64,000 nt of DNA. Source: Nitrospirota bacterium (GTDB taxonomy: Bacteria; Nitrospirota; Thermodesulfovibrionia; Thermodesulfovibrionales; SM23-35). Of the stretch, positions 8,804 through 48,511 are shown piece after piece (position 1 is the first letter of the stretch; every line of letters starts with the position of its first letter). The DNA is taken from contig CAWGWX010000034.1 in assembly GCA_963826355.1 (NCBI GenBank), positions 13,622 to 77,621 on the forward strand, given 5' to 3'. The translations under genes were made by a program, and so were the position numbers. The notes beneath the pieces were generated by a model that saw only the letters and a program-made list of their open reading frames with translations, was not told the DNA's origin and ran no database searches.

Positions 8804-9428
8804 TCATAAAACAACTCTTCCGCTGTTTGATGCCTTCACCTCTTCCCCCTCCTTTCCCCTTATATCCACTCCTCTGTGCAGACTCATCCTCTTCATGTTG
8901 AGTATCCGCTTTGTACCGTAGGGAGCTAATATCTCATGTTCGAGGGGAAGTGTAAAGCAACCATCCCAGAGTCTATCAGATACTTTCTGAAATATAGATT
9001 TCAGTCTTCTTTCTTCTTTCTTCTTTCTTTACCCTCCTCAAGTTTTCGGTGCTCAATAACACTTCATCTTCAGGCAGGGTAATCTCCCGTGTTGGAAAGC
9101 TGATGTGTTTTACGACTATATCCATACGCTTTCTCCTCTTGCCTATTTTCAGGTTAACAGGATAGACACCCGGCTGGGTTTTCATTTCTACTGCTCCGAT
9201 AGCAATAAAACAACGCTCTTCACTTCGACTGGAATAAAAATTTTTCCCCATAAATGAAGCAGGAGACATCTTCGAGACCCTTGTGTTAGTCACCTTGATG
9301 ACAAAAGCATCTCCCGGGAAGACTTCATGAGGTGAAACCATGACTTCGAGGGCAAAAGAAATGTCACACAGAAAAAACACAAGAAATACCAGGGTGATAA
9401 AAAATAAAAGTATACTATGCCTTTTCAT
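8804..9428 (-). pseudogene. M23 (LytM) peptidase gene, frameshifted and 3'-truncated
   Basis: Signal peptide MKRHSILLFFITLVFLVFF plus an N-terminal domain typical of M23 proteins (ORF ending 8976). It continues in another frame as FTLPLEHEILAPYGTKRILNMKRMSLHRGVDIRGKEGEEVKASNSGRVVL*. That frame ends before the HxH half of the domain and abuts the start of the next gene. Confidence 0.6.
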
Positions 9429-10815: not shown

Positions 10816-10948
10816 AGTAATTTTTTTCTTCCCGGACTCTCCACCCGCCATATTTATGAAATATTGTATATTATATATTATAATTAATAAACTATTTCAG
10901 CCTTAACCGTGAAGAGAATTTGAAAGATAGGGCAAAGGGGATGAACGG

Positions 10949-14789: not shown

Positions 14790-15067
14790 AAGTGCAAGAC
14801 AAAGGCACCTTTTATAACATTCGCTAGGATAAAGAGATTAAAAAACATTTCTGTGCTGAATATCAAGATATTGAAAAGAATTTTCAATGCTGTGAGCATG
14901 GTATACCTTATATTATTATGGGGTTAAGACCTTATCCATCAAAATAAGGCTGATGTAGGAATAACACTTACAAAAAAATCAGATAAACACTGATATTTTT
15001 AAATATGACCAATGACTTAATATCTATTAAGTATAAGCTCTTATACTCCTAAGAAAGGAGGTATTCA

Positions 15068-15130
15068 ATGAAATTAACGAAGGTTACCAAGAAAGTTTCA
15101 ATGACATGTAAATGCAAGAACTCCTGTTAG
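15068..15130 (+). CDS. Candidate 20-aa Cys-rich micropeptide (MKLTKVTKKVSMTCKCKNSC)
   Basis: Strong SD AAAGGAGG lies 7 nt upstream of the ATG. An intrinsic terminator follows at 15183-15212. Not in the ORF track. Confidence 0.3.
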   Translation: MKLTKVTKKVSMTCKCKNSC

Positions 15131-15182
15131 TTGTTTCCCAGGGCAGTGTTTTAAGACTGTGAGAAGAATCTTTTTTGTGAAG

Positions 15183-15212
15183 GGGCGTGTTTTAAAGACA
15201 CGCTCTTTTTTA
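15183..15212 (+). terminator. Rho-independent terminator
   Basis: GGGCGTGT-tttaaag-ACACGCTC (8 bp with one G-U) followed by TTTTTTAT. Confidence 0.6.
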
Positions 15213-15385
15213 TCATTACCCACATACTCCAACAATTTCTTGTCCAATTATTTTCATACGACTTCCTCCTTGAATAGCTCAAATGAAAATATTTCTTTGC
15301 TATGTGTGATATTGAGAAATAGGCTCATTGATATGTTAAAATTTAATTAAAACATATCAGTGTAAGCTCTTCAGGTTTCAGCAAT

Positions 15386-16191
15386 ATGGAAAAAGATATA
15401 GCAAAAACAAAACAGCTTGTTGTAAAAACGTATTCAGCAATAGCCACCAATGCATCGTGTTGCATTATGTCTCCAAGCTGCTGTGCACCGAAGACCAGTA
15501 CGGTAAGCCTTCTCGAAACAGGCAGATGTCTGGGATACTCTGAAGAAGAATTGAAAATTGGGCTTGGGGAGGCAAATCTTGGCTTGGGCTGTGGGAATCC
15601 TCATGCAATAGCTGATATGAAAGCAGGAGAGACCGTACTTGACCTTGGAAGTGGTGCAGGTTTTGATGCCTTTCTTTCAACCATGAAAGTTGGAAACATG
15701 GTTACGTGATAGGGGTAGATATGACCGTTGAGATGGTCACAAAAGCAAAGGGCAATGCGCAAAAACTCGGGATAAAAAATGTTGAGTTCAGACTTGTAGA
15801 AATAGAACATCTGCCTGTGGATGATTGCTCTATTGATATCATTATATCGAACTGCGTCATTAATCTCTCCCCTGACAAACAGGCTGTCTTTCAGGAAGCC
15901 TTCCGTGTATTAAAACCTGAGGGAAGGCTTGCAATCTCAGACATACTCAAAAAAGGTGAATTCTCTGAGGCTCTTAAACAGAATGAGAGCGCTTACAGCG
16001 GTTGAATCACAGGGGCTGTTCCCGTGGAGGAACTCAGAGAGATTCTCAGAAAAGCTGGTTTTATTGATATTGTCATTCAAGACAAGGAAAACAGTGACGA
16101 GATTATCAAAAGCTGGCATTTCGGTGAAGGCGTTGAAAAAATGGTATTTTCAGCCTATATTCAAGCAAGAAAATCTTATGATGAAACATAA
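15386..16191 (+). CDS. arsM: Arsenite S-adenosylmethionine methyltransferase with an in-frame TGA (candidate Sec) and one frameshift
   Basis: Motifs [40 protein letters not shown] and [17 protein letters not shown] at 16003-16005 lies in AYSG[TGA]ITGAV, matching the conserved yaGC(V/I)xGA Cys. The reading frame continues to 16191. A frameshift lies at GGAAAC 15692-15697. Confidence 0.8.
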
Positions 16192-16565
16192 GGCAATTGG
16201 GCTCTGGTCTTTTACCGGATATCTCGTTCATAATCACTACTCAAGGGCTATTGTATTTAAGCAACATGATTAAGCTTTCTAAAACAGAAATTAGATAAGA
16301 GGATAGTTGTTACATTTTGACACAACGATTCCAAAAACGCACATGTCATTTATTAATCGCATATAGCTATACAGGCATAATGATTTCAGGGGAAAGCAAG
16401 CGTTTTTTTCTTTTACTTGAATATGCTCATGTGTTTCATAACGGTCTAATGGATTTTTAAAAGCAAAGGCAAATTTCAAAAAAACCTTATTTTCATTATG
16501 TTAGCTTTGATTTTATCATTGGCATGTTTTTAGCCTAAAGAGAAATAAGGAGAGGTTATAGAGGA

Positions 16566-16898
16566 ATGGAATTGCTTAACCCGAAAATATGTCAGGACAG
16601 AGAATCCTACGAAAAGGAGGAAGGTATGATGACTGAGAAATACATATACTGTTCGCTTTGTTACAGCCAGGTTGAGCAAATAGGAAAACCTGGTTGGGTG
16701 GGTGTTTTGCCCTATCCATGGGATGGAAAAAGCAGAACAGGCAGTATCGTTAGAAGACATACTGAAGACCTTTCAAGAGGAAAGACATTGCTGAAAAAGA
16801 CAAGTCTCTTGAAACGAGGGCATGGCTATGATTGCACTCGCTTTTTATTAATAGAAGTCCAAAAGAAGAGATCTCGGACAGTCCTTTCAAGAAGTTAA
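16566..16898 (+). CDS. Hypothetical protein (weak)
   Basis: AAGGAGAGG precedes the ATG. No motif was recognised. The antisense ORF is equally poor. Confidence 0.25.
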   Translation: MELLNPKICQDRESYEKEEGMMTEKYIYCSLCYSQVEQIGKPGWVGVLPYPWDGKSRTGSIVRRHTEDLSRGKTLLKKTSLLKRGHGYDCTRFLLIEVQKKRSRTVLSRS

Positions 16899-16937
16899 TA
16901 AACGGTTTGTTCTATTGCTTCAATGATTAAGAAATAT

Positions 16938-17243
16938 TTAGCAAGATTGTATGAGTGGGTATGCTGAACCGCTATAATCATTCAGGCTTAGATATTCTCT
17001 ATAAAGCCGTTTCTCCTTGTGAAGCAGTCTATACTCTTGATATGCTCCAGTAATGGTCAGGGTTGAGATCAGGTAAAGTACTCCGGTAAGTATCAGAGCA
17101 ATAAAAAAGACCGTAAAGAAAAGTTTAGGCTTGCGGAGAAATAGAAAACATACTACTCCTGCGAGAGCAATGGCAATGTGTATATTGTCTCGAAAGTAGT
17201 CAAAAAAAATATATTTTATCATCAGCAAAAAATCCATAGGCAC
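16938..17243 (-). CDS. Small hypothetical membrane protein (2-3 TM)
   Basis: 101 aa with hydrophobic segments IAIALAGVVCFLFL and FFTVFFIALILTGVLYLISTL. GGAG lies near the start. Confidence 0.45.
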   Translation of the reverse strand: MPMDFLLMIKYIFFDYFRDNIHIAIALAGVVCFLFLRKPKLFFTVFFIALILTGVLYLISTLTITGAYQEYRLLHKEKRLYREYLSLNDYSGSAYPLIQSC

Positions 17244-17604
17244 TCCTTTCTTACTCTTTTCATTTGTTTTTAAGATTTGAAAATTTGAAAGTAGGTTGGG
17301 CTATGGCAGTCTCAATTTGAACTTGATAGCCCAAATTGATACTGCCACAGCATAGGGGAGGGAAATGGGGTATCATGGTACTATTTAACCTACTGCAGCA
17401 TAAGGATTTCTGTGACAGGAATCACAAAAGGAGTTTTTTCTTTCCTTTTCCGGATGATATCAAGATCATCCCGGAAGGAGCTTGAATAGATAAACAGAAA
17501 AGATATCACAGTAAATGTTCTAAGGGTAACTCCCGTTGCTGATTCTTTACCCTTTAAGATTTACTAGTTTGAGATTTTCCTTTAGGACAGCTTTTAAGCT
17601 ATTA

Positions 17605-17715
17605 CTATTTTTTCTTATGCGTTGCGCAGTATTTCGTTTTTCCGGTTACAGGGTTCTTACATTTTTTCCCTTTTGTTGTCTTGGCGCTGCATGTTGCCTT
17701 TTTTGCTTGTGCCAT
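17605..17715 (-). CDS. Candidate 36-aa basic C-C-C-H peptide (MAQAKKATCSAKTTKGKKCKNPVTGKTKYCATHKKK)
   Basis: GGAGGAAAC immediately precedes ATG (17715). Spacing is Cys-x10-Cys-x10-CxxH. Not in the ORF track. The overlapping + ORF 17536..17736 looks like its shadow. Confidence 0.45.
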   Translation of the reverse strand: MAQAKKATCSAKTTKGKKCKNPVTGKTKYCATHKKK

Positions 17716-17870
17716 GTTTCCTCCTTCTGTTCTTGAAATATATTTATCTCTGTGTTCTCAATATATCATAAAACTATGAATAATGCATCCCCCATTCACA
17801 TCTCAGATGTTTCAATGTAAAATAACATCAAGTAGATAATTCATACATCGCATTCATTAAGGGAGGAGTT

Positions 17871-30719: not shown

Positions 30720-30750
30720 AAAAGTTAAAAGTGAGAAGTGAGAAGTTTTC
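30720..30750 (+). repeat. Heptamer-periodic purine-rich array immediately after the clpX stop
   Basis: AAAAGTT AAAAGTG AGAAGTG AGAAGTT, with AGT every 7 nt, four times. Confidence 0.6.
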
Positions 30751-31549: not shown

Positions 31550-33847
31550 ATGCCGAAAATAAGAATTTATGAGCTTGCCAAAAAATTAGGAGTAACAAGT
31601 AAGGTTATCATTAGCGAGCTTTCAAAACTCGGTATAGAAGGGAAAGCGCATACTTCAAGTATCGAGCCCGAGTTGGCTGGAAATATTGAGGCTACATTAC
31701 TGAAAAAAGCTGTCAAACCGATAAAAGAAACTATCCCTCAAGAGAGCTCAGTAACCGAGGAAGTTGTGAGACCCCAGGTCGAAAAAGCTCCAGAGGAGCA
31801 TGGGGGAAAAGCAGTTACAATAGAGGGAAAGGAACCCGGAAGAGAAGGACGGAAAATACTTGTAATACCTGAAGAGGAAGAAGAATTAAAGGTTCCTGAT
31901 AGGTTCAAAAAAGAGATAGAGACAGAAAAGATTGAGAAGTTCAAGGCAAAACCAGGGATGCAGAAGGCTTTTCAGACAATCAGAAAGATAGAGCCCAAAA
32001 GATGGCATGAACAAAAACCATTAAAGAAGTTAGAAAAGATAAGACCTTTTCCAAAAGAAGAGCAGAAACCTCCTATCCATCTTGTCATTCCAAGAAAGAA
32101 GACACTGAAACTTCAGGAAGGCACTACGGTAAAGGAATTTGCAGAACTCATAAGTGTCAAACTCTCTGATGTTATAAAGAAATTCATGGAATTAGGATAT
32201 ATGCCAACAATAAACCAGCCTGTTGACCCTGACGCAGCCCTGTTAGTTGCGGAGGGTTTTGGAGTTAAGCTCGAGCTTTCATCTCTTGAAGATGATGCTG
32301 TTATCACAGAGGCACCAGAAGATATTGGTACATTATTACCGCGTCCTCCTGTTATAACCATCATGGGACATGTAGACCATGGAAAGACTTCCCTCCTCGA
32401 TGCAATAAGAAAAACAAAAGTTATCGAGACCGAAGCAGGAGGGATTACCCAGCATATCGGCGCATATAAGATTAATCTGAGAGGCAAAGATATTGTATTT
32501 CTCGATACGCCAGGTCATGAGGCGTTCACTTCTATGAGAGCAAGGGGGGCAAAGGTAACGGATATCGTTGTTCTTGTTGTAGCTGCAGATGATGGCGTCA
32601 TGCCGCAGACTGTTGAGGCTATCAATCATGCAAAGGCCGCAAATGTCCCGATCGTTGTAGCCATAAACAAGATCGACAAGCCAGAGGCGAATCCATCAAA
32701 GGTAAGGAATGAACTTGCAGAACACGGGATAATACCTGAGGAGTGGAGTGGACAAAACATCTTTGTTGAGGTATCTGCCAAAAAAGCTATAGGCATAGAA
32801 AGCCTCCTTGAGATGATACTCCTTCAGTCGGAGATAATGGAGCTTAAAGCCAACCCTGAGAAAAAAGCAAGGGGTACTATAATCGAAGCGAAACTCGATA
32901 GAGGGAGGGGACCTGTTGCAACGGTACTCGTCCAATCTGGAACCCTAAGGATTGGCGATACATTCCTTGCAGGTATTCATGTAGGAAAAGTAAGGGCATT
33001 GATCGACGATACAGGTAAAAGGATTACAGAAGCAGGCCCAACAACACCAGTTGAGGTAATCGGTTTTCCAGAGGTTCCCTCGGCAGGCGACATCTTTATC
33101 GCCGTCGATGACGAAAAGAGAGCAAGACAGATAGCCCTTGCAAGACAGCAGAAACAGAGACTTACTGATATGGCAAAGACGAGGAAGCTTACCCTCGATG
33201 AATTATATGCGAAGATAAAAGAGGGGGAGATAAAAGATCTCAACATTATTATTAAGGGCGATGTTCAAGGATCTGTTGAGGCACTAAAGGATGCCCTTGA
33301 AAGTATTACCCACACACAGGTGAAGGTTAGGGTCATCCATTCTTCTGTTGGTGGTATCAATGAGTCAGACATTATGCTCGCCTCTGCCTCAAATGCAATT
33401 ATCATAGGTTTCAATGTGAGGCCCGAGCCCAAAGCGTACCAGGCAGCAGAAAAGGAAGGCGTTGATGTCAGGCTTTATAACGTGATTTATGAAGCAATAG
33501 AAGATGTTAAAAAGGCACTTGAGGGTCTTCTCGAACCCACACTCAAAGAAAAAACCCTTGGAAGAGCAGAGGTCCGTCAGGTGTTTCCGATATCGAAGAT
33601 AGGAACGGTTGCAGGATGTTACGTGCTTGATGGCTCTATCAGCCGCTCAAGTGATGGTATGAGGATTAGTAGGGATAGCATTGTTGTATATGACGGTAAA
33701 ATCGGTTCCCTTAAAAGATTCAAGGAAGATATCAGAGAGGTACAAGCAGGATATGAATGCGGCATCCTGATCGAAAACTTTAATGATATAAAAGTTGGAG
33801 ACATACTCGAAAACTACATTATTGAGAAGATAGCAACAAAACTCTAA
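31550..33847 (+). CDS. infB: Translation initiation factor IF-2
   Basis: 765 aa. G-domain motifs [20 protein letters not shown] and NKID. Located upstream of rbfA. Confidence 0.95.
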
Positions 33848-39081: not shown

Positions 39082-39596
39082 GGAAGATAACCTGTTGCTT
39101 CATCATGCTTTTTCTTTTATTACCCTTTGCAGGCTGCAAAAAAGAACAGGCTCCTGTAAAAAAACCGATGGCCGGGCAGGTTCAACCTCCACCGGCAACA
39201 CCGGAAGTAAAGAGCCCAGAAGAGACAAAGAAGGCCGAGCAGGAAATATATGTGTATGACGCAAAAGGGAAAAGGGACCCTTTCCTTTCTCTCGTAACGA
39301 TATTAAAACAGAAGCCAGAAAGGAGGAAGGGCTCGACTCCTTTTGAAAGCTACAGTGTCGATGAAATAAATCTTTTAGCAATTGCATGGGATAATCAAAA
39401 GTATTATGCCCTCATCATGTTGCCTGATAAAAAGTCGTATACGATTACGGAAGGGATGAAATTGGGACTCTATGGAGGGAAGGTACAGAAAATAACTAAG
39501 GATATGGTGGTAATCAGGGAATACATGAAAGACTATAAAGGCGATCTTAAACCAAAGGATTCAATATTGAAACTCCGTAAAGAGGAGGGAGGATGA
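39078..39596 (+). CDS. pilP: Pilus assembly lipoprotein PilP
   Basis: Lipobox LLLPFAGC, the motif GKRDPF, and its position between pilO and pilQ. Confidence 0.7.
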   Translation: MRKITCCFIMLFLLLPFAGCKKEQAPVKKPMAGQVQPPPATPEVKSPEETKKAEQEIYVYDAKGKRDPFLSLVTILKQKPERRKGSTPFESYSVDEINLLAIAWDNQKYYALIMLPDKKSYTITEGMKLGLYGGKVQKITKDMVVIREYMKDYKGDLKPKDSILKLRKEEGG

Positions 39597-41756
39597 AACT
39601 CATAGTAAAGGAAAAGAAGCGAAAAGCTAAGAGCAAGCAAAGAGCGAAAAACAAATGGCAATACTCTAAATCAATTCTTTTATACTCCATGATGCTATGC
39701 TCTCTGCTCTTTGCTCTCTATGGTTGCGCAACAACAGGTGATGCTAAAGAAACTACACAGCCTGAAAGAACTCCTGTAATAACCGGAATAGATCTTCAGG
39801 ATTATTCAGTAACGATAAAGGTTAGTAAACCTTTTAGTTACACCATGTACAGGCCAGAGGACCCTTATAAAGTTGTCGTTGAACTTCTTGATGTTAACAT
39901 GGGTGCTTTTAATATGAAGATCATTTCTGATAAGGCAGGAATAACCGAGATCGTTCCCTACCAGATTGAGTCACCTTTTATGACAAGGCTCGAAATACTG
40001 CTTCAGACGCCTACTACAGCTGAACCAGAGTATAAAGACAATGCACTGAAAATCAGGATAAAAGAATCACCGAAAGAAGTAACAAAAGCAGAAATAATGA
40101 AAGCAAAGGAAGAGGTATCAGAAACAAAAGAACCCGAACCTGTTATGCCTGAAGAGAAACAGCTTCCAAAGGCTACAGAGATAACCAGTATCTCCTTCGA
40201 AAGGTCAGCTGACATCGTCAAAGTCCTTATTAAAGGTAATGGATCTATGAATCCAAATGTTTTACCTTTAGATAATCGCATCGTCATAGACGTTCCTGAT
40301 GTAGATATGAAAGCTCAGATTCCAGAGTCAGTGGTATCACCATTAAAAAGTATCAGATCAGGGAAACATGATAACAAGATACGATTAGTCCTCGATCTCA
40401 AAGAAAAGACAGATTTTGATGTCACAACAATCGGAGACACCCTTGTCGTAGCCCTATCAACTCTATCAGTACCAATTTCTCAGAGGTCTGAAGAAAAGAT
40501 AGAGGCTGCAGAATCCATGCCGGGTTCAGAAGGTAAATATACCGGCAAAAAGATATCTCTCGATTTTCAAGATGCTGATATCGTTCCGATATTTAGGTTA
40601 CTTTCTGATATTAGTGGTTATAACATCGTCGTGAGTCCTGAGGTCAAAGGTAAATTAACAATGAAGCTCATCAATGTGCCCTGGGATCAAGCACTCGACA
40701 TAATATTGAAGACCTTCAGCCTTGGGAAGACTGTTGAAAATAACATCATAAGGATTGCACCCTATAATGCTTTTGCTAAAGAGATGGAAGAGGCAGTAAA
40801 GTCAGTGCCCTTAGATACTAAAATATTTCACATCAGCTATGCCGATGTATCTAATATAGAGAAGTCCATAAAAGATGCAAAGATACTTTCATCAAGAGGA
40901 AGCATTAGCGTTGATAAAAGGACAAGCTCCGTGGCCATTAATGATGTAGAAGCAGTTTTCCCGCAAATCGAAAATCTCCTTTCAACCCTCGATACACCAA
41001 CACCCCAGGTAATGATAGAGGCAAGGCTTGTTGAGGTGAATACATCAGATGTCAGCGCTTTGGGAATTCAATGGGGAGTAGCCCACGAAGCGGGAAGTAA
41101 ACCATTTCAGGGGAACGTAAACCTAGGTAAAGGAGCCTTTACAGGGAAGAACTTCATGGTTGACTTCCCAGCGAGCTGGGGCGGGCCCTGGCGCTGGTGC
41201 TGGATTTGCTATCGGAATTCTGGATACTACAAGGACGATGGGGCTTGATCTGCAGCTCTCTGCACTTGAGAGACTTGAGAAGAGTAAGATAATTTCTACC
41301 CCTCGGATCGTTACTACAGATAATGAAAAAGCTTCAATAATGCAGGGAACAAGTGTACCTTTTCCCAAAGTAGACGTGCAATCGGGTCAAATATCGGTTG
41401 AATATAAAGATGTTGTTATTCTCATAGAGGTAACACCCCATATAACCCCCTCCGGAGCTGTCACTACGTTAATTTTTGTGAAAAAGGAAGATGTCATACG
41501 TGAAACCTCAATTGGCGGTAATCCGGTTCCCGTTACTTCTAAAATAGAGGGAAATACAAAAGTTCTCGTGCAGACTGGAGAGACTATCGTTATTGGTGGA
41601 CTCTTAAAGAAGACAGAGAAGGAAAACACTTCAGGTGTTCCAGGTTTGATGAATATTCCTATTCTTGGATGGTTATTTAAGACCAAAGGGACTTCTGAAG
41701 AAACAAGCGAGCTTTTGATATTCATTACGCCGAGGGTTTTGGAGAAAACAATATGA
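39593..41756 (+). pseudogene. pilQ: Type IV pilus secretin PilQ, interrupted by a +1 frameshift in the secretin domain
   Basis: AMIN-like N-terminal repeats. The secretin core is split between ORF 39593..41248 (..NFMVDFPAS) and ORF 41160..41756 (GAGPGAGAGFAIGIL...LSALERLEKSKIISTPRIVTTDNEKASIMQG...LLIFITPRV). The shift site lies between 41127 and 41248, probably near GCGAGCTGGGG (41171-41181). Confidence 0.85.
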
Positions 41757-42391
41757 TTTCTCCTGTTGTGAATGCGTTCACGTATCTTACTAGATGAACT
41801 GAACGCAAGAATAATCAATACCTGAAGGCAATTTTTTAGAGTAAAAAACAAAAATATATGTCCCACCTCCGATTTCTTACCGCTGGTGAATCCCATGGGA
41901 GGGCGCTTATAGGAATTCTTGAGGGCATTCCCTCCGGGCTTTCTATTTCTGTAGAGGATATTGACAGAGACCTCAAAAGAAGACAGTCAGGTCATGGTCG
42001 CGGTGCTCGGATGAAGATAGAGTCTGACCATGCTGAGATCCTTTCAGGAGTGAGGTGGGGAAAAACAATAGGTTCTCCCATAACTCTTTTTATTGAAAAT
42101 AAAGACTGGAAGAACTGGCAGGATGTAATGTCAACGGAGTTCGTCAGTCTGGGCCAGAAGAGTTCGGGAAGTCAAGATCCCAGAATGGAAATCGTCACCC
42201 GTCCACGCCCTGGCCATGCAGACTTAGCAGGTGCCATAAAGTATAGCCAATATGATTTAAGAAATATTCTTGAACGCTCAAGTGCCAGGGAAACGGCAAT
42301 GAGAGTTGGCCTTGGCGCACTTGCAAAAAAGTTTCTTTTGGAATTTAGGATTAAAGTTGGTAGTTATGTTATCCAGATAGGCAAAATCAAA

Positions 42392-42426
42392 GTTCAAACT
42401 TCAAACTTCAAACTTCAAAGTTCAGG
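42392..42426 (+). repeat. Heptamer tandem array (N)TTCAAA x5 inside aroC (in frame; encodes VQTSNFKLQSSG)
   Basis: GTTCAAA CTTCAAA CTTCAAA CTTCAAA GTTCAGG. Confidence 0.85.
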
Positions 42427-42741
42427 AAAAATACTATTATCTCTGTTCGAAAAGGCAGAAAGGTCACCGGTCAGGTGTCCGGATGAAGAGATTTCAGCAA
42501 AGATGACCAAGCTGATAGACAAGGTAACCAAAGATGGGAATTCCCTTGGAGGTATATTTGAGGTCTTCGTAACAGGTGTCCCCATAGGTCTTGGAAGTCA
42601 CATGCAATGGGACAAAAGGCTCGATGGAAGGCTTGCACAGGCGCTCATGGGCATCCAGGCAATAAAAGGAGTTGAGACCGGTATCGGTTTTGAGATAGCA
42701 AGACGCTTCGGCTCAGAAGTTATGGATGAAATATTTTATAC

Positions 42742-42769
42742 TCAGGAGTCAGGAGTCAGGAGTCAGGAG
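42742..42769 (+). repeat. Perfect heptamer tandem array (TCAGGAG)x4 inside aroC
   Basis: Four exact copies (28 nt). The reading frame differs on the two sides of the array. Confidence 0.9.
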
Positions 42770-43143
42770 GTTTCTATAGAAAAACTAACTATGCTGGTGG
42801 GATAGAAGGTGGTATGACGAACGGAATGCCCATAATTATGAGAGCAGCAATGAAACCCATACCTACCTTAAAGAGACCTCTTCGATCTGTTGACATCATA
42901 ACAAAAAAGCCTGTAGAAGCAGCCTATGAACGTTCGGACATCTGTGCAGTACCTGCAGCAGGAGTAATAGCAGAGGCGATGATTGCCCTGATTATTGCAG
43001 ATGCCTTCCTCGAAAAATTCGGCGGGGATAGCATAACCGAAACAAAACGTAATTACGACTCCTATATTGAGTATATAAAGAAATTTTAGGTTCTTCTCCT
43101 CATTAGTTTTACAAAGGGGATTATCGTAATTAATTTTTGGCTC

Positions 43144-45985: not shown

Positions 45986-47404
45986 TTATTGTTTTTTCCA
46001 TGAGGTTACAAATGTCTGAAGGCCTTCGGTCTTTGTTATTTTTGCAGATAGAGTCTCAGCCGTTTCCCTGTTGCTGAATTTGCCCGTCCATACCTTATAG
46101 AGCCTTCCCTCCTTTTTTGATTTTGACGAGGTTATATAGGTATGATATCCCTTTTTATCAAGTCTTTTCTTGAGGGACTTTGCATAAGAGACATCGGTGA
46201 AGGCACCCACCTGGACTGTAAATATCGCCTGTGAGGGTTTCTGGGATTGTGAAAGTTTTATTTTTGTTTTTTCAGTGGTCTCTGCCTTTTCACTTTGTGG
46301 TACAGCTTCTTGAAGGGGGGTAGAGGTCTGGGCTCTAACCTCTCCAGGAGATTTTTCCGCCAAAATTGATTCTTGAGGTGGAGGAGAAGCTTGTGATTGA
46401 ACCTGTTTAGTCAATCTTTCGTTTTGAACGAAGGTCCTTAAGGATTTAATCTCAAGACTTTTATTTAATGAGCTTTTCCAAGCAAAATAACCAACTATAA
46501 GACTCGCTAAGACCGTGACGAATATGGCTGAAATGATAATGCCAATAGAGGTTGATTTATTCCTTACAATGTTTCTCTCCCCTATTGGTAAATCTGCTGT
46601 CTTTATTTCTCTTTCTATAAATAAGTCTGTTTCCAGTTGTTCTTCCTCTAGCATAGCTGATGTTTCTGGTTTCTCGCTTTCTCGCAATATCTCAGACTCC
46701 TTCCCATCCAAGGACTTTTCCCGTTCTCCATGCTTTTCTATCACTTCTTCTATAGAAAATCTCACAGGTTGTTCTGAAACCATCTCTTTATCATGGATAC
46801 CCTCTTTTATCCAGCCATGTTTGGGACAGAAAACCCAACCAGATTTCTTGAAATCCTCTTTTCTCTTTCCATATTTCTCAATCTGTTTATTGCAAATGGT
46901 GCAATACATGGTTCTATCTGTTGCTTTATTCATGTCGTCTTTTAGTTCCTTTTCTAGCATAGCTGATGTTTCTGGTTTCTCGCTTTCTCGCAATATCTCA
47001 GACTCCTTCCCATCCAAGGACTTTTCCCGTTCCCCATGCTTTTCTATCACTTCTTCTATAGAAAATCTCACAGGTTGTTCTGAAACCATCTCTTTATCAT
47101 GGATACCCTCTTTTATCCAGCCATGTTTGGGACAGAAAACCCAACCAGATTTCTTGAAATCCTCTTTTCTCTTTCCATATTTCTCAATCTGTTTATTGCA
47201 AATGGTGCAATACATGGTTCTATCCCCCGTCATACTCTTATCGTTTTGTGATGCTTTTTTCTCTATCTCCTTTTTGAATCTATCCGGACCCTTTGACTCT
47301 TCTTCCTCAGGAGTGAACGATGCTTCTGATCTCTCCATTTCGGAAAGTGTCTCCGGCTCGTTTTCTGCTAAAGGATTTTCCTGTTCTCTATGTTCTTCTT
47401 GCAC
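45986..47404 (-). CDS. SPOR-domain membrane protein with a duplicated zinc-ribbon module
   Basis: C-terminal SPOR domain (IFTVQVGAFTDVSYAKSLKKRLDKKGYHTYITSSKSKKEGRLYKVWTGKF). One TM segment. Two near-identical copies of CTICNKQIEKYGK...WVFCPKHGW units. Confidence 0.75.
   Translation of the reverse strand: MQEEHREQENPLAENEPETLSEMERSEASFTPEEEESKGPDRFKKEIEKKASQNDKSMTGDRTMYCTICNKQIEKYGKRKEDFKKSGWVFCPKHGWIKEGIHDKEMVSEQPVRFSIEEVIEKHGEREKSLDGKESEILRESEKPETSAMLEKELKDDMNKATDRTMYCTICNKQIEKYGKRKEDFKKSGWVFCPKHGWIKEGIHDKEMVSEQPVRFSIEEVIEKHGEREKSLDGKESEILRESEKPETSAMLEEEQLETDLFIEREIKTADLPIGERNIVRNKSTSIGIIISAIFVTVLASLIVGYFAWKSSLNKSLEIKSLRTFVQNERLTKQVQSQASPPPQESILAEKSPGEVRAQTSTPLQEAVPQSEKAETTEKTKIKLSQSQKPSQAIFTVQVGAFTDVSYAKSLKKRLDKKGYHTYITSSKSKKEGRLYKVWTGKFSNRETAETLSAKITKTEGLQTFVTSWKKQ
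46648..47224. repeat. Direct tandem duplication, period 306 bp, inside the SPOR gene
   Basis: 46648-46918 and 46954-47224 are identical at 270/271 positions. The only difference is T 46727 versus C 47033, which is synonymous. Confidence 0.9.
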
Positions 47405-47866: not shown

Positions 47867-47938
47867 ATGAAGTCATGGAAGGACAATATTACTTTCATCC
47901 TCGTCGAGCCGAAGGAGCCCGGCAACAAAGGAGGTTAA
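47867..47938 (+). pseudogene. Possible 5' remnant of a TrmJ/SpoU-type RNA methyltransferase gene
   Basis: MKSWKDNITFILVEPKEPGNKGG*. The stretch ITFILVEPKEPGN resembles the conserved SpoU/TrmJ N-terminus (..IVLVEPxxPGNIGA). The reading frame ends in the RBS of the next gene. Confidence 0.3.
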
Positions 47939-47940
47939 AG

Positions 47941-48511
47941 ATGAAAGTTGTAGCTTTTAATGGAAGTCCAAGGAAAAAAGGTAACACCTATCACGCTATC
48001 CAGACAGTATTCAAAGAGCTTAAGAAAGAAGGTATAAAGACTGAACTCATTCAGCTCGGAGGTACCAATATAAAGGGATGCAGGGCATGCTATGAGTGTT
48101 TTAAGAATAAAAATAAACGCTGCATTCAGGACGATGAACTAAATGTGTTCATTGAGAAAATGGTAGAGGCGGAAGGAATCATTATCGGGTCCCCTACATA
48201 TTTCAGTAATGTCTCTACTGAGGTAAAGGCCCTTATTGAGAGGGCTGGCCTCGTTGCCCGTGCTAATACATCTTTTTAAAAGAAAGGTTGGAGCTGCTGT
48301 TGTAGCAGTCCGGAGGGCAGGGGCGACCCATGTATATTCGAGCATAAACTTCTTTTTTGGGATTGGACACATGATTATTCCGGGCTCAAGTTACTGGAAT
48401 CTTGGAATCGGTCTTAATCCGGGTGATATACTTAAGGACAAAGAAGGCATAACAACATTCAGAGATTTAGGGCAGAACATGGCATGGCTTCTTAAAAAAC
48501 TTTATGGATGA
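47941..48511 (+). pseudogene. Flavodoxin-like fold NAD(P)H-dependent FMN reductase / iron-sulfur flavoprotein, frameshifted
   Basis: AAAGGAGG then ATG. MKVVAFNGSPRKKGNTY...CRACYEC...IIIGSPTYFSNVS..ARAN, then a frame change to [22 protein letters not shown]...[10 protein letters not shown]. The shift lies near 48262-48270 and is not in a homopolymer. Confidence 0.75.

Follow-up and report, generated by a model that had tools for sequence, protein, structure and literature searches.

A conserved in-frame UGA codon and downstream hairpin point to a selenocysteine-containing arsenite methyltransferase in Thermodesulfovibrionales

The arsM locus and its in-frame TGA codon

In this study, we analysed a 64,000-nucleotide stretch of DNA from a Nitrospirota bacterium (GTDB lineage Bacteria; Nitrospirota; Thermodesulfovibrionia; Thermodesulfovibrionales; SM23-35; GenBank assembly GCA_963826355.1, contig CAWGWX010000034.1, positions 13,622 to 77,621 of the forward strand), the whole of which is referred to below as the window and supplies all coordinates. 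The gene of interest, located at positions 15386-16191 of the forward strand, is of the ArsM (arsenite methyltransferase) type, is split over two reading frames and carries an in-frame TGA at codon 207, which a preliminary description of the sequence had put forward as a candidate selenocysteine (Sec) codon. The features of the gene are listed below, where CmArsM denotes the arsenite methyltransferase of Cyanidioschyzon, SAM stands for S-adenosylmethionine, and L031 is the closest relative, a 2.8-kb contig from run SRR22387926 with 97.1% nucleotide identity over window positions 15026-17797 (global alignment).

15386-15694, forward strand: 5' part of arsM, codons 1-103, with the start codon ATG at 15386 (open reading frame (ORF) list, NF008823 profile and PDB alignment)
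15590-15592, forward strand: TGT codon of Cys69 of the arsM product, counterpart of CmArsM Cys72
15635-15661, forward strand: SAM-binding motif VLDLGSGAG, residues 84-92
15692-15697, forward strand: frameshift site, GGAAAC in the window versus GGACAAC (Gly-Gln) in L031 (global alignment)
15695-16191, forward strand: 3' part of arsM, codons 104-268 and the stop codon, in the shifted frame
15853-15855, forward strand: TGC codon of Cys157 of the arsM product, counterpart of CmArsM Cys174
16003-16005, forward strand: in-frame TGA, proposed selenocysteine, codon 207, motif U-I-T-G (UxxG), context ESAYSG[TGA]
16189-16191, forward strand: TAA, the genuine stop codon of arsM, lying no more than a few codons from where its orthologues end

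According to the ORF list, the first frame, which opens with the ATG at 15386, terminates at a TGA at 15707-15709. Translation of the second frame from 15706 yields VIGVDMT...ESAYSG, followed by the TGA at 16003-16005, 61 sense codons and the TAA at 16189-16191, and the coordinates given for these elements in the preliminary description are all correct. For profile scoring, one base was put back at 15695 and the TGA was rendered as Cys, which gave a protein of 268 residues. This protein scored 321.8 bits against the NCBIfam model NF008823 (arsenite methyltransferase; cut-off 263), the match extending over residues 5-265 of the protein and positions 4-269 of the 272 in the profile. The sequence VLDLGCGTG of CmArsM aligned to VLDLGSGAG, the SAM glycine-rich motif DLGxGxG being present, and the protein shares its start, MEKDKAKTKQ, with its orthologues. 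Cysteines occur towards the N-terminus at residues 25, 26, 32, 33 and 48 (C32 and C33 being invariant within the clade); as the PDB alignment begins only at residue 67, no counterpart can be assigned to the fourth conserved cysteine (CmArsM Cys44). By homology, the locus is the ArsM gene of a large Nitrospirota/Thermodesulfovibrionales clade, although the window copy, being one base short at 15695, lacks the uninterrupted frame looked for in an ArsM gene.

Alignment to the CmArsM structures (phmmer, PDB 4fr0 and 4kw7) places codon 207 on Cys224, C157 on Cys174 and C69 on Cys72, with residues 156-230 aligning gap-free with chain residues 173-247 of CmArsM. Arsenicals are held between Cys174 and Cys224, and the first methylation needs all four conserved cysteines (PMC6138428). 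The proposal that the TGA occupies the position of an As(III)-binding cysteine is thus borne out by the homologue alignment, and for the Cys224-equivalent ligand to be present, the TGA has to be decoded as Sec or Cys.

The TGA is not peculiar to the window. It was found at the aligned codon in all 35 other loci in which this codon could be read, and TAA or TAG never was; these loci (24 genome loci, nine metagenome loci, L024 and L031) derive mostly from Nitrospirota/Thermodesulfovibrionales metagenome-assembled genomes (MAGs) and metagenome contigs. In a species-representative genome collection, 24 of 24 Nitrospirota/Thermodesulfovibrionales loci (69-88% identity) carry TGA and none carries TAA, TAG or TGC; four Acidobacteria homologues in the same collection carry TGC, in the context AYVGCIAGA. 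Additionally, a metagenome scan with the clade alignment returned 80 loci (52-77% identity), nine with TGA, 66 with TGC or TGT and five in which the codon was not located by motif search. When genome and metagenome loci are taken together, TGC or TGT stands at the aligned codon in 70 other homologous loci as against TGA in 35, which is the signature of a Cys-to-Sec replacement that had been anticipated from the window alone.

Past the TGA, the frame stays ITG[AS]VPVEEL...MVFSAYI.A.KP in every non-frameshifted orthologue, with mostly synonymous variation, so the earlier remark that ArsM-like sequence continues beyond this codon holds for the clade as a whole. At the protein level, nearly all of the best 120 homologues (73-96% identity) are about 206 aa long (range 200-250); they span 77% of the query and correspond in length to the stretch before the TGA, and the five that were fetched all terminate in AYSG. 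Judging from this conservation, the TGA is evidently translated through across the clade. In one Nitrospirota MAG (L006, positions 459-1619), no stop codon follows ...KARKP in the arsM frame, which runs on for ~120 extra codons (MVDEWITEVKKK...EEEFF and a stop); either the gene is fused here or its stop codon has been lost.

Hairpins downstream of the UGA codon

Two stem-loops had been noted at the position where a bacterial selenocysteine insertion sequence (SECIS) would be expected, and both exist:

16008-16026, forward strand: alternative hairpin CAC.GGG/CCCGUG, the first of the two in the preliminary description and part of the minimum-energy fold of 16003-16050
16018-16033, forward strand: SECIS-type hairpin, stem GUUCC (16018-16022)/GGAAC (16029-16033), loop CGUGGA (16023-16028), as given by RNAalifold

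Since the two hairpins overlap, they are mutually exclusive, and it is the second that proved to be conserved and to fit the SECIS model, while the first is neither. RNAalifold applied to 25 orthologous segments returned only the stem GUUCC/GGAAC (columns 19-23 with 30-34), which is paired in 125 of 125 cells and shows a compensatory G-C to A-U change in L002 (AUUCC...GGAAU) and a U-G wobble in L029. The bacterial SECIS model calls for a loop of 3-9 nt, a stem of 4-16 bp, a G in the first two loop positions and a UGA-to-loop distance of 16-37 nt (PMC13188914); the hairpin at 16018-16033, whose stem is 5 bp long and whose loop CGUGGA starts 17 nt past the UGA with G at its second position, fits this model in loop size, stem length, loop G and spacing. 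The hairpin at 16008-16026 is confined to the window, L031 and L001; elsewhere its two arms change with no compensating substitutions, and its loop starts 12 nt past the UGA, which is too near for the model. Three extra stem pairs (columns 16-18 with 35-37), present in many relatives and absent from the window, were considered and rejected, as 84.5% of their cells pair, no better than in shuffles.

When 23 orthologues were aligned by codon, the five codons under the conserved hairpin (V212-E216) displayed a normalised codon entropy of 0.108, the lowest of any five-codon window, compared to a gene mean of 0.743 and a value of 0.42 in the next lowest non-overlapping window. GTT encodes V212 in all 22 sequences and GAA encodes E216 in all 23, while the other conserved Val columns, bar that of the adjacent V214, use two to four codons each with none dominant. 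Furthermore, a second clade of Sec type, represented by the metagenome loci L038, L039, L047 and L051 (motif AYTG-U-VSGAISPDEV), possesses a hairpin of 7 bp, UCUCACC/GGUGAGA or UUUCACC/GGUGAAA, the 6-nt loop of which starts 20 nt past the UGA. All 34 tabulated UGA loci form the inner five pairs, with pair types that differ between the two clades at three positions, and G occupies loop position 2 in each. The local hairpin energy has a median of -7.9 kcal/mol in Sec-type sequences versus -4.1 kcal/mol in Cys-type sequences (Mann-Whitney p = 7.5e-5, the sequences not being phylogenetically independent).

Folding of the window sequence by itself gave no significant signal (z was -0.43 over the segment 16003-16050 and -0.76 over the 22-nt hairpin), and the evidence for the hairpin is therefore comparative. 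That evidence supports 16018-16033 as the predicted SECIS of this gene. For the clade, this defines a putative SECIS as a minimal hairpin with a stem of 5-8 bp and a 6-nt loop, whose counterpart in the second clade differs in sequence.

Decoding of codon 207 and the state of the window copy

We consider it very probable, given the comparisons above, that arsM here encodes a Sec-containing arsenite methyltransferase in which UGA codon 207 is recoded. The codon would be recoded to Sec by SelB together with Sec-tRNA(Sec), under the direction of the intragenic hairpin GUUCC/GGAAC with its 5-bp stem and 6-nt loop CGUGGA. A selenol would then stand in place of a thiol at the residue equivalent to CmArsM Cys224, and Sec207 and Cys157 (the Cys174 equivalent) may hold As(III) or methyl-As(III) beside SAM. 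That Sec is truly inserted, that SelB binds and that selenium is of any advantage in catalysis are inferred. Sec at the Cys224 position is what the logic of Sec/Cys pairs predicts; the scientific novelty is modest, and the value of the finding lies in annotation.

Several observations weigh against this interpretation. Covariation within the main clade is thin, amounting to the one compensatory change and the one wobble, for which reason two independent tests (codon usage and the second clade) were added. The window hairpin alone comprises only 5 bp and reaches -5.6 kcal/mol, the model threshold being -7.5 kcal/mol; the minimal 5-bp stem occurs in the window, L031 and L001, and stems of 6-8 bp occur in relatives (-6.6 to -12.3 kcal/mol). 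When the stem is enforced in the 48-nt region, -8.9 kcal/mol is attained via a lineage-specific, non-conserved lower stem (GAAUC/GAUUC). The naked 48-nt RNA folds at -13.7 kcal/mol using the pairs of 16008-16026 (ensemble probability about 0.81), and about 0.001 of its ensemble contains the conserved stem. With the UGA in the A site, the first 9 nt past it are assumed to lie inside the mRNA channel of the ribosome; when these 9 nt were withheld from folding, the conserved stem became dominant (0.94) and the hairpin at 16008-16026 was gone. No Rfam family was found for the region, as an E-value search of 15900-16200 gave only a chance snoRNA match, and a gathering-threshold search of the whole 64-kb window gave tRNA-Leu only. 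Additionally, NCBIfam and Pfam scans, which covered about 60 window ORFs, identified no selA, selB or selD, and neither these genes nor a tRNA-Sec occur in the window or in the DNA flanking the loci of relatives, although 64 kb is a small sample of a genome and says little; tRNA-Sec was likewise absent from the window and from 35 related loci. The window arsM is also frameshifted (GGACAACATGG in L031 versus GGA-AACATGG in the window at 15695) and carries the replacement G138V at a residue kept as Gly by 20 of 21 relatives. Among the scan results, a match of TIGR00475 (selB) to 31550-33847 was discarded as the GTPase domain of IF-2.

The alternatives concern the manner in which the UGA is read. 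It might be a nonsense mutation or a true terminator, with a 206-aa product and a downstream frame that is a mere remnant, as would suit the ~206-aa proteins given by gene callers and GenBank MAG records and the lack of Sec machinery in the window. We regard this as highly improbable, since TGA, and never TAA or TAG, is kept in the 35 other loci and, at identities as low as 73%, in about 120 protein clusters, since the 61 downstream codons are kept as ArsM sequence with mostly synonymous variation, and since the truncated product would be without the Cys224-equivalent arsenic ligand. Nor does a change of the genetic code account for the reading: TGA is the ordinary stop of 17 of 52 window genes, hence the code is not reassigned and any recoding must be local. 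Other selenoproteins were not found in the window, the arsM TGA being the only one that looks coding on both sides among in-frame TGAs with at least 60 codons before and at least 25 after. Recoding of the UGA to cysteine, or to a mixture of residues, by a tRNA(Sec)-like tRNA-Cys (selC*) appears very unlikely, even though selC* tRNA-Cys genes occur in Thermodesulfovibrio and in probable Nitrospirae contigs and a form with the UCA anticodon inserted Cys at an opal Sec codon in E. coli (PMC5389517). The opal-anticodon forms are tied to cysS*-bearing Desulfobacterales and not to Thermodesulfovibrio, and the Thermodesulfovibrio genomes carrying selC* also contain the full Sec apparatus, with complete selA/B/C/D (PMC5389517); in Nitrospirae, selC overlaps selB (PMC9312934). 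More remote still is an arrangement in which two tRNAs, tRNA-Sec and selC*, would serve the arsM UGA of this clade, switching between Sec and Cys with the selenium supply, and in which the hairpin at 16008-16026, present only in the sub-lineage of the window, would tune the choice.

Recoding to Sec, the reading that we prefer, has a direct bearing on annotation. Almost all public gene calls for this arsM clade end at the Sec codon, at ~206 aa (P0001-P0120; L001-L024, L029, L031-L036), and GenBank MAG records carry some of these ~206-aa products, such as P0035, P0057 and P0117, under the name 'arsenite methyltransferase'. These clade-wide gene calls are a systematic mis-annotation, and estimates of arsenic-methylation potential in surveys based on the third cysteine or on calls of full-length ArsM will be wrong for these organisms.

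As written, the window copy cannot make the enzyme, because with one C missing at 15695 the frame hits the TGA at 15707-15709. At the site of the shift, VGQHG is encoded by L031, L001 and P0001-P0004, the last four of which (206 aa, intact, 89-96% identical) read ...MKVGQHG[YH]VIGVDM. The preliminary description was right about the presence of a frameshift at 15692-15697, while its view of this as an artefact of an A-run could not be established: the lost base is a C in an A-C-A-A context (GGACAAC to GGAAAC), and no A-run was shortened. The missing base is probably a sequencing or assembly error. It is, for all that, quite conceivable, if somewhat doubtful, that the 1-nt deletion is real and that this strain, carrying a pseudogene, no longer makes Sec-ArsM. 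The C that was lost stood between A's in the ancestral GGACAAC, and no homopolymer changed in length; natural indels relative to L031 are frequent, with seven in the adjoining 1.6 kb of non-coding DNA; the window carries K5I and A99T in addition to G138V; and the lesion in the aroC gene of the window, a 14-nt expansion of a heptamer repeat, resembles mutation rather than a base-calling error. On the other hand, four frameshifted genes within 64 kb, including the housekeeping genes aroC and pilQ, form a pattern seen more often with faulty assembly than with gene decay in free-living bacteria, and the start, TGA, hairpin, stop and remainder of arsM are intact. The assemblies of L020, L023 and L024 also have a frameshifted arsM, at other sites, which suggests that indel errors are frequent in such MAG assemblies. 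Moreover, L031 carries the equally odd R181M (R in the other 21 sequences); with odd replacements in both copies there is no asymmetry towards relaxed selection, and G138V does not discriminate. Restoration of the frame at 15692-15697 by programmed ribosomal frameshifting has nothing in its favour beyond the existence of the shift, and is a practically negligible prospect: the frame is uninterrupted in the closest relatives, on which account it was rejected, and the site UUGGAAACA is without a slippery heptamer (from direct reading and general knowledge of -1 frameshift sites). The window arsM should not be counted as functional before the one-base deletion has been checked in the reads.

The three other frameshifted genes of the window lie further downstream. 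The type IV pilus secretin gene pilQ, at 39593-41756 (forward strand), consists of two overlapping ORFs in different frames, of which 39593-41248 corresponds to positions 1-202 and 41160-41756 to positions 247-428 of the 428 in TIGR02515; the frame changes near 41170-41185 (ccagcgagctggggcgggccc), where the window apparently has one base extra. The chorismate synthase gene aroC, at 41858-43089 (forward strand), is split into 41858-42805 and 42814-43089, the break falling at a perfect heptamer tandem repeat (TCAGGAG x4.0, 42742-42769). Two fewer copies of TCAGGAG restore the match to solved chorismate synthases, hence the 14-nt expansion in the window. The fourth frameshifted gene, a flavodoxin/NADPH-dependent FMN-reductase-like gene at 47875-48511 (forward strand), changes frame near 48262-48272. 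Repeats of period 7 make up 12 of 47 Tandem Repeats Finder rows, subject to the detection bias of the tool, and several are intragenic (for example 9005-9029, 10861-10886, 30720-30746, 39698-39719, 42387-42424 and 42742-42769); aroC holds two heptamer repeats, TCAAACT x5.4, which is in frame, and the frame-breaking TCAGGAG x4.0. Additionally, a 306-bp unit is present x1.9 with 99% identity at 46647-47224, within a 472-aa ORF (45986-47404, reverse strand) whose C-terminal end is matched by the family models of RlpA and FtsN; 102 codons seem to have been duplicated here in frame, and recently.

In the surroundings of arsM, an inverted-repeat scan identified a near-palindrome, CATTGATATGTTAAAATT / AATTAAAACATATCAGTG, at 15326-15362, the end of which lies 24 nt 5' of the arsM start. 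It is kept in L031 and largely in L001, has no arsR-like gene adjoining it and is, from its sequence, a possible operator or promoter element; a promoter/terminator scan of 15200-16500 gave nothing useful. Further upstream, at 15215-15256 on the reverse strand, a 13-codon ORF (MKIIGQEIVGVCG and a stop), preceded by GGAGGA and directed away from arsM, is conserved in L031 in the version MKIIGQEIVEVCGE (and a stop). In the ~1.6 kb 3' of arsM (16200-17870), no ORF exceeds 110 aa and Pfam, NCBIfam and Rfam gave no match; L031 shares 97% identity here, interrupted by several multi-base indels, and L001 about 80%.

Comparison with known arsenite methyltransferases and selenoproteins

Sec-containing arsenite methyltransferases have been described previously, as the preliminary description had stated. 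Table 1 of a 2026 review (PMC13188914) lists, under 'Experimentally verified', an arsenite methyltransferase (NF008823, UxxG, one Sec, WP_011987699.1) with reference to Fomenko et al. 2007 (Science 315:387); the Sec-ArsM family also appears in a 2022 review (PMC9312934), and the Global Ocean Sampling (GOS) selenoproteome includes 'Arsenite S-adenosylmethyltransferase, PRK11873' (PMC2398784). The window protein belongs to the same family (PRK11873/NF008823) and has the same UxxG motif, with one Sec proposed at the ligand equivalent to Cys224. It was compared with WP_011987699.1 by catalogue description only, and differs in that the window copy is frameshifted and its clade is mostly annotated at ~206 aa.

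Relative to CmArsM (PDB 4fr0, 4fs8 and 4kw7) and the Cys-type ArsM/AS3MT enzymes, the window protein is of the same fold family (E = 1.9e-27 over residues 67-230) and shares with CmArsM the SAM motif and the equivalents of Cys72 and Cys174. In contrast to these enzymes, which use TGC or TGT for Cys224, the window has TGA; furthermore, the window protein is shorter (268 aa compared to about 380 in CmArsM), because it is without the C-terminal domain of the algal enzyme. The hairpin loop of the window, C-G-U-G-G-A, fits the bSECISearch consensus N1-G-[G/U]-N-N2-N (Zhang and Gladyshev 2005, as summarised in PMC13188914), although the isolated hairpin is weaker than that consensus requires (-5.6 versus -7.5 kcal/mol).

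The methyltransferase domain and UxxG are also shared with the ArsM-fusion selenoproteins NF041537 (ArsM/AhpD, UU), NF041536 (ArsM/DUF2284, UU) and NF047649 (methyltransferase/UXPK-star). The scores against these models are, however, far below their cut-offs (161.4 versus 510, 159 versus 575 and 149.6 versus 460 bits, respectively), as the methyltransferase part alone matches and the window protein, with its single proposed Sec, is without a fused second domain. The window gene is thus a member of an already catalogued selenoprotein family, known since 2007.

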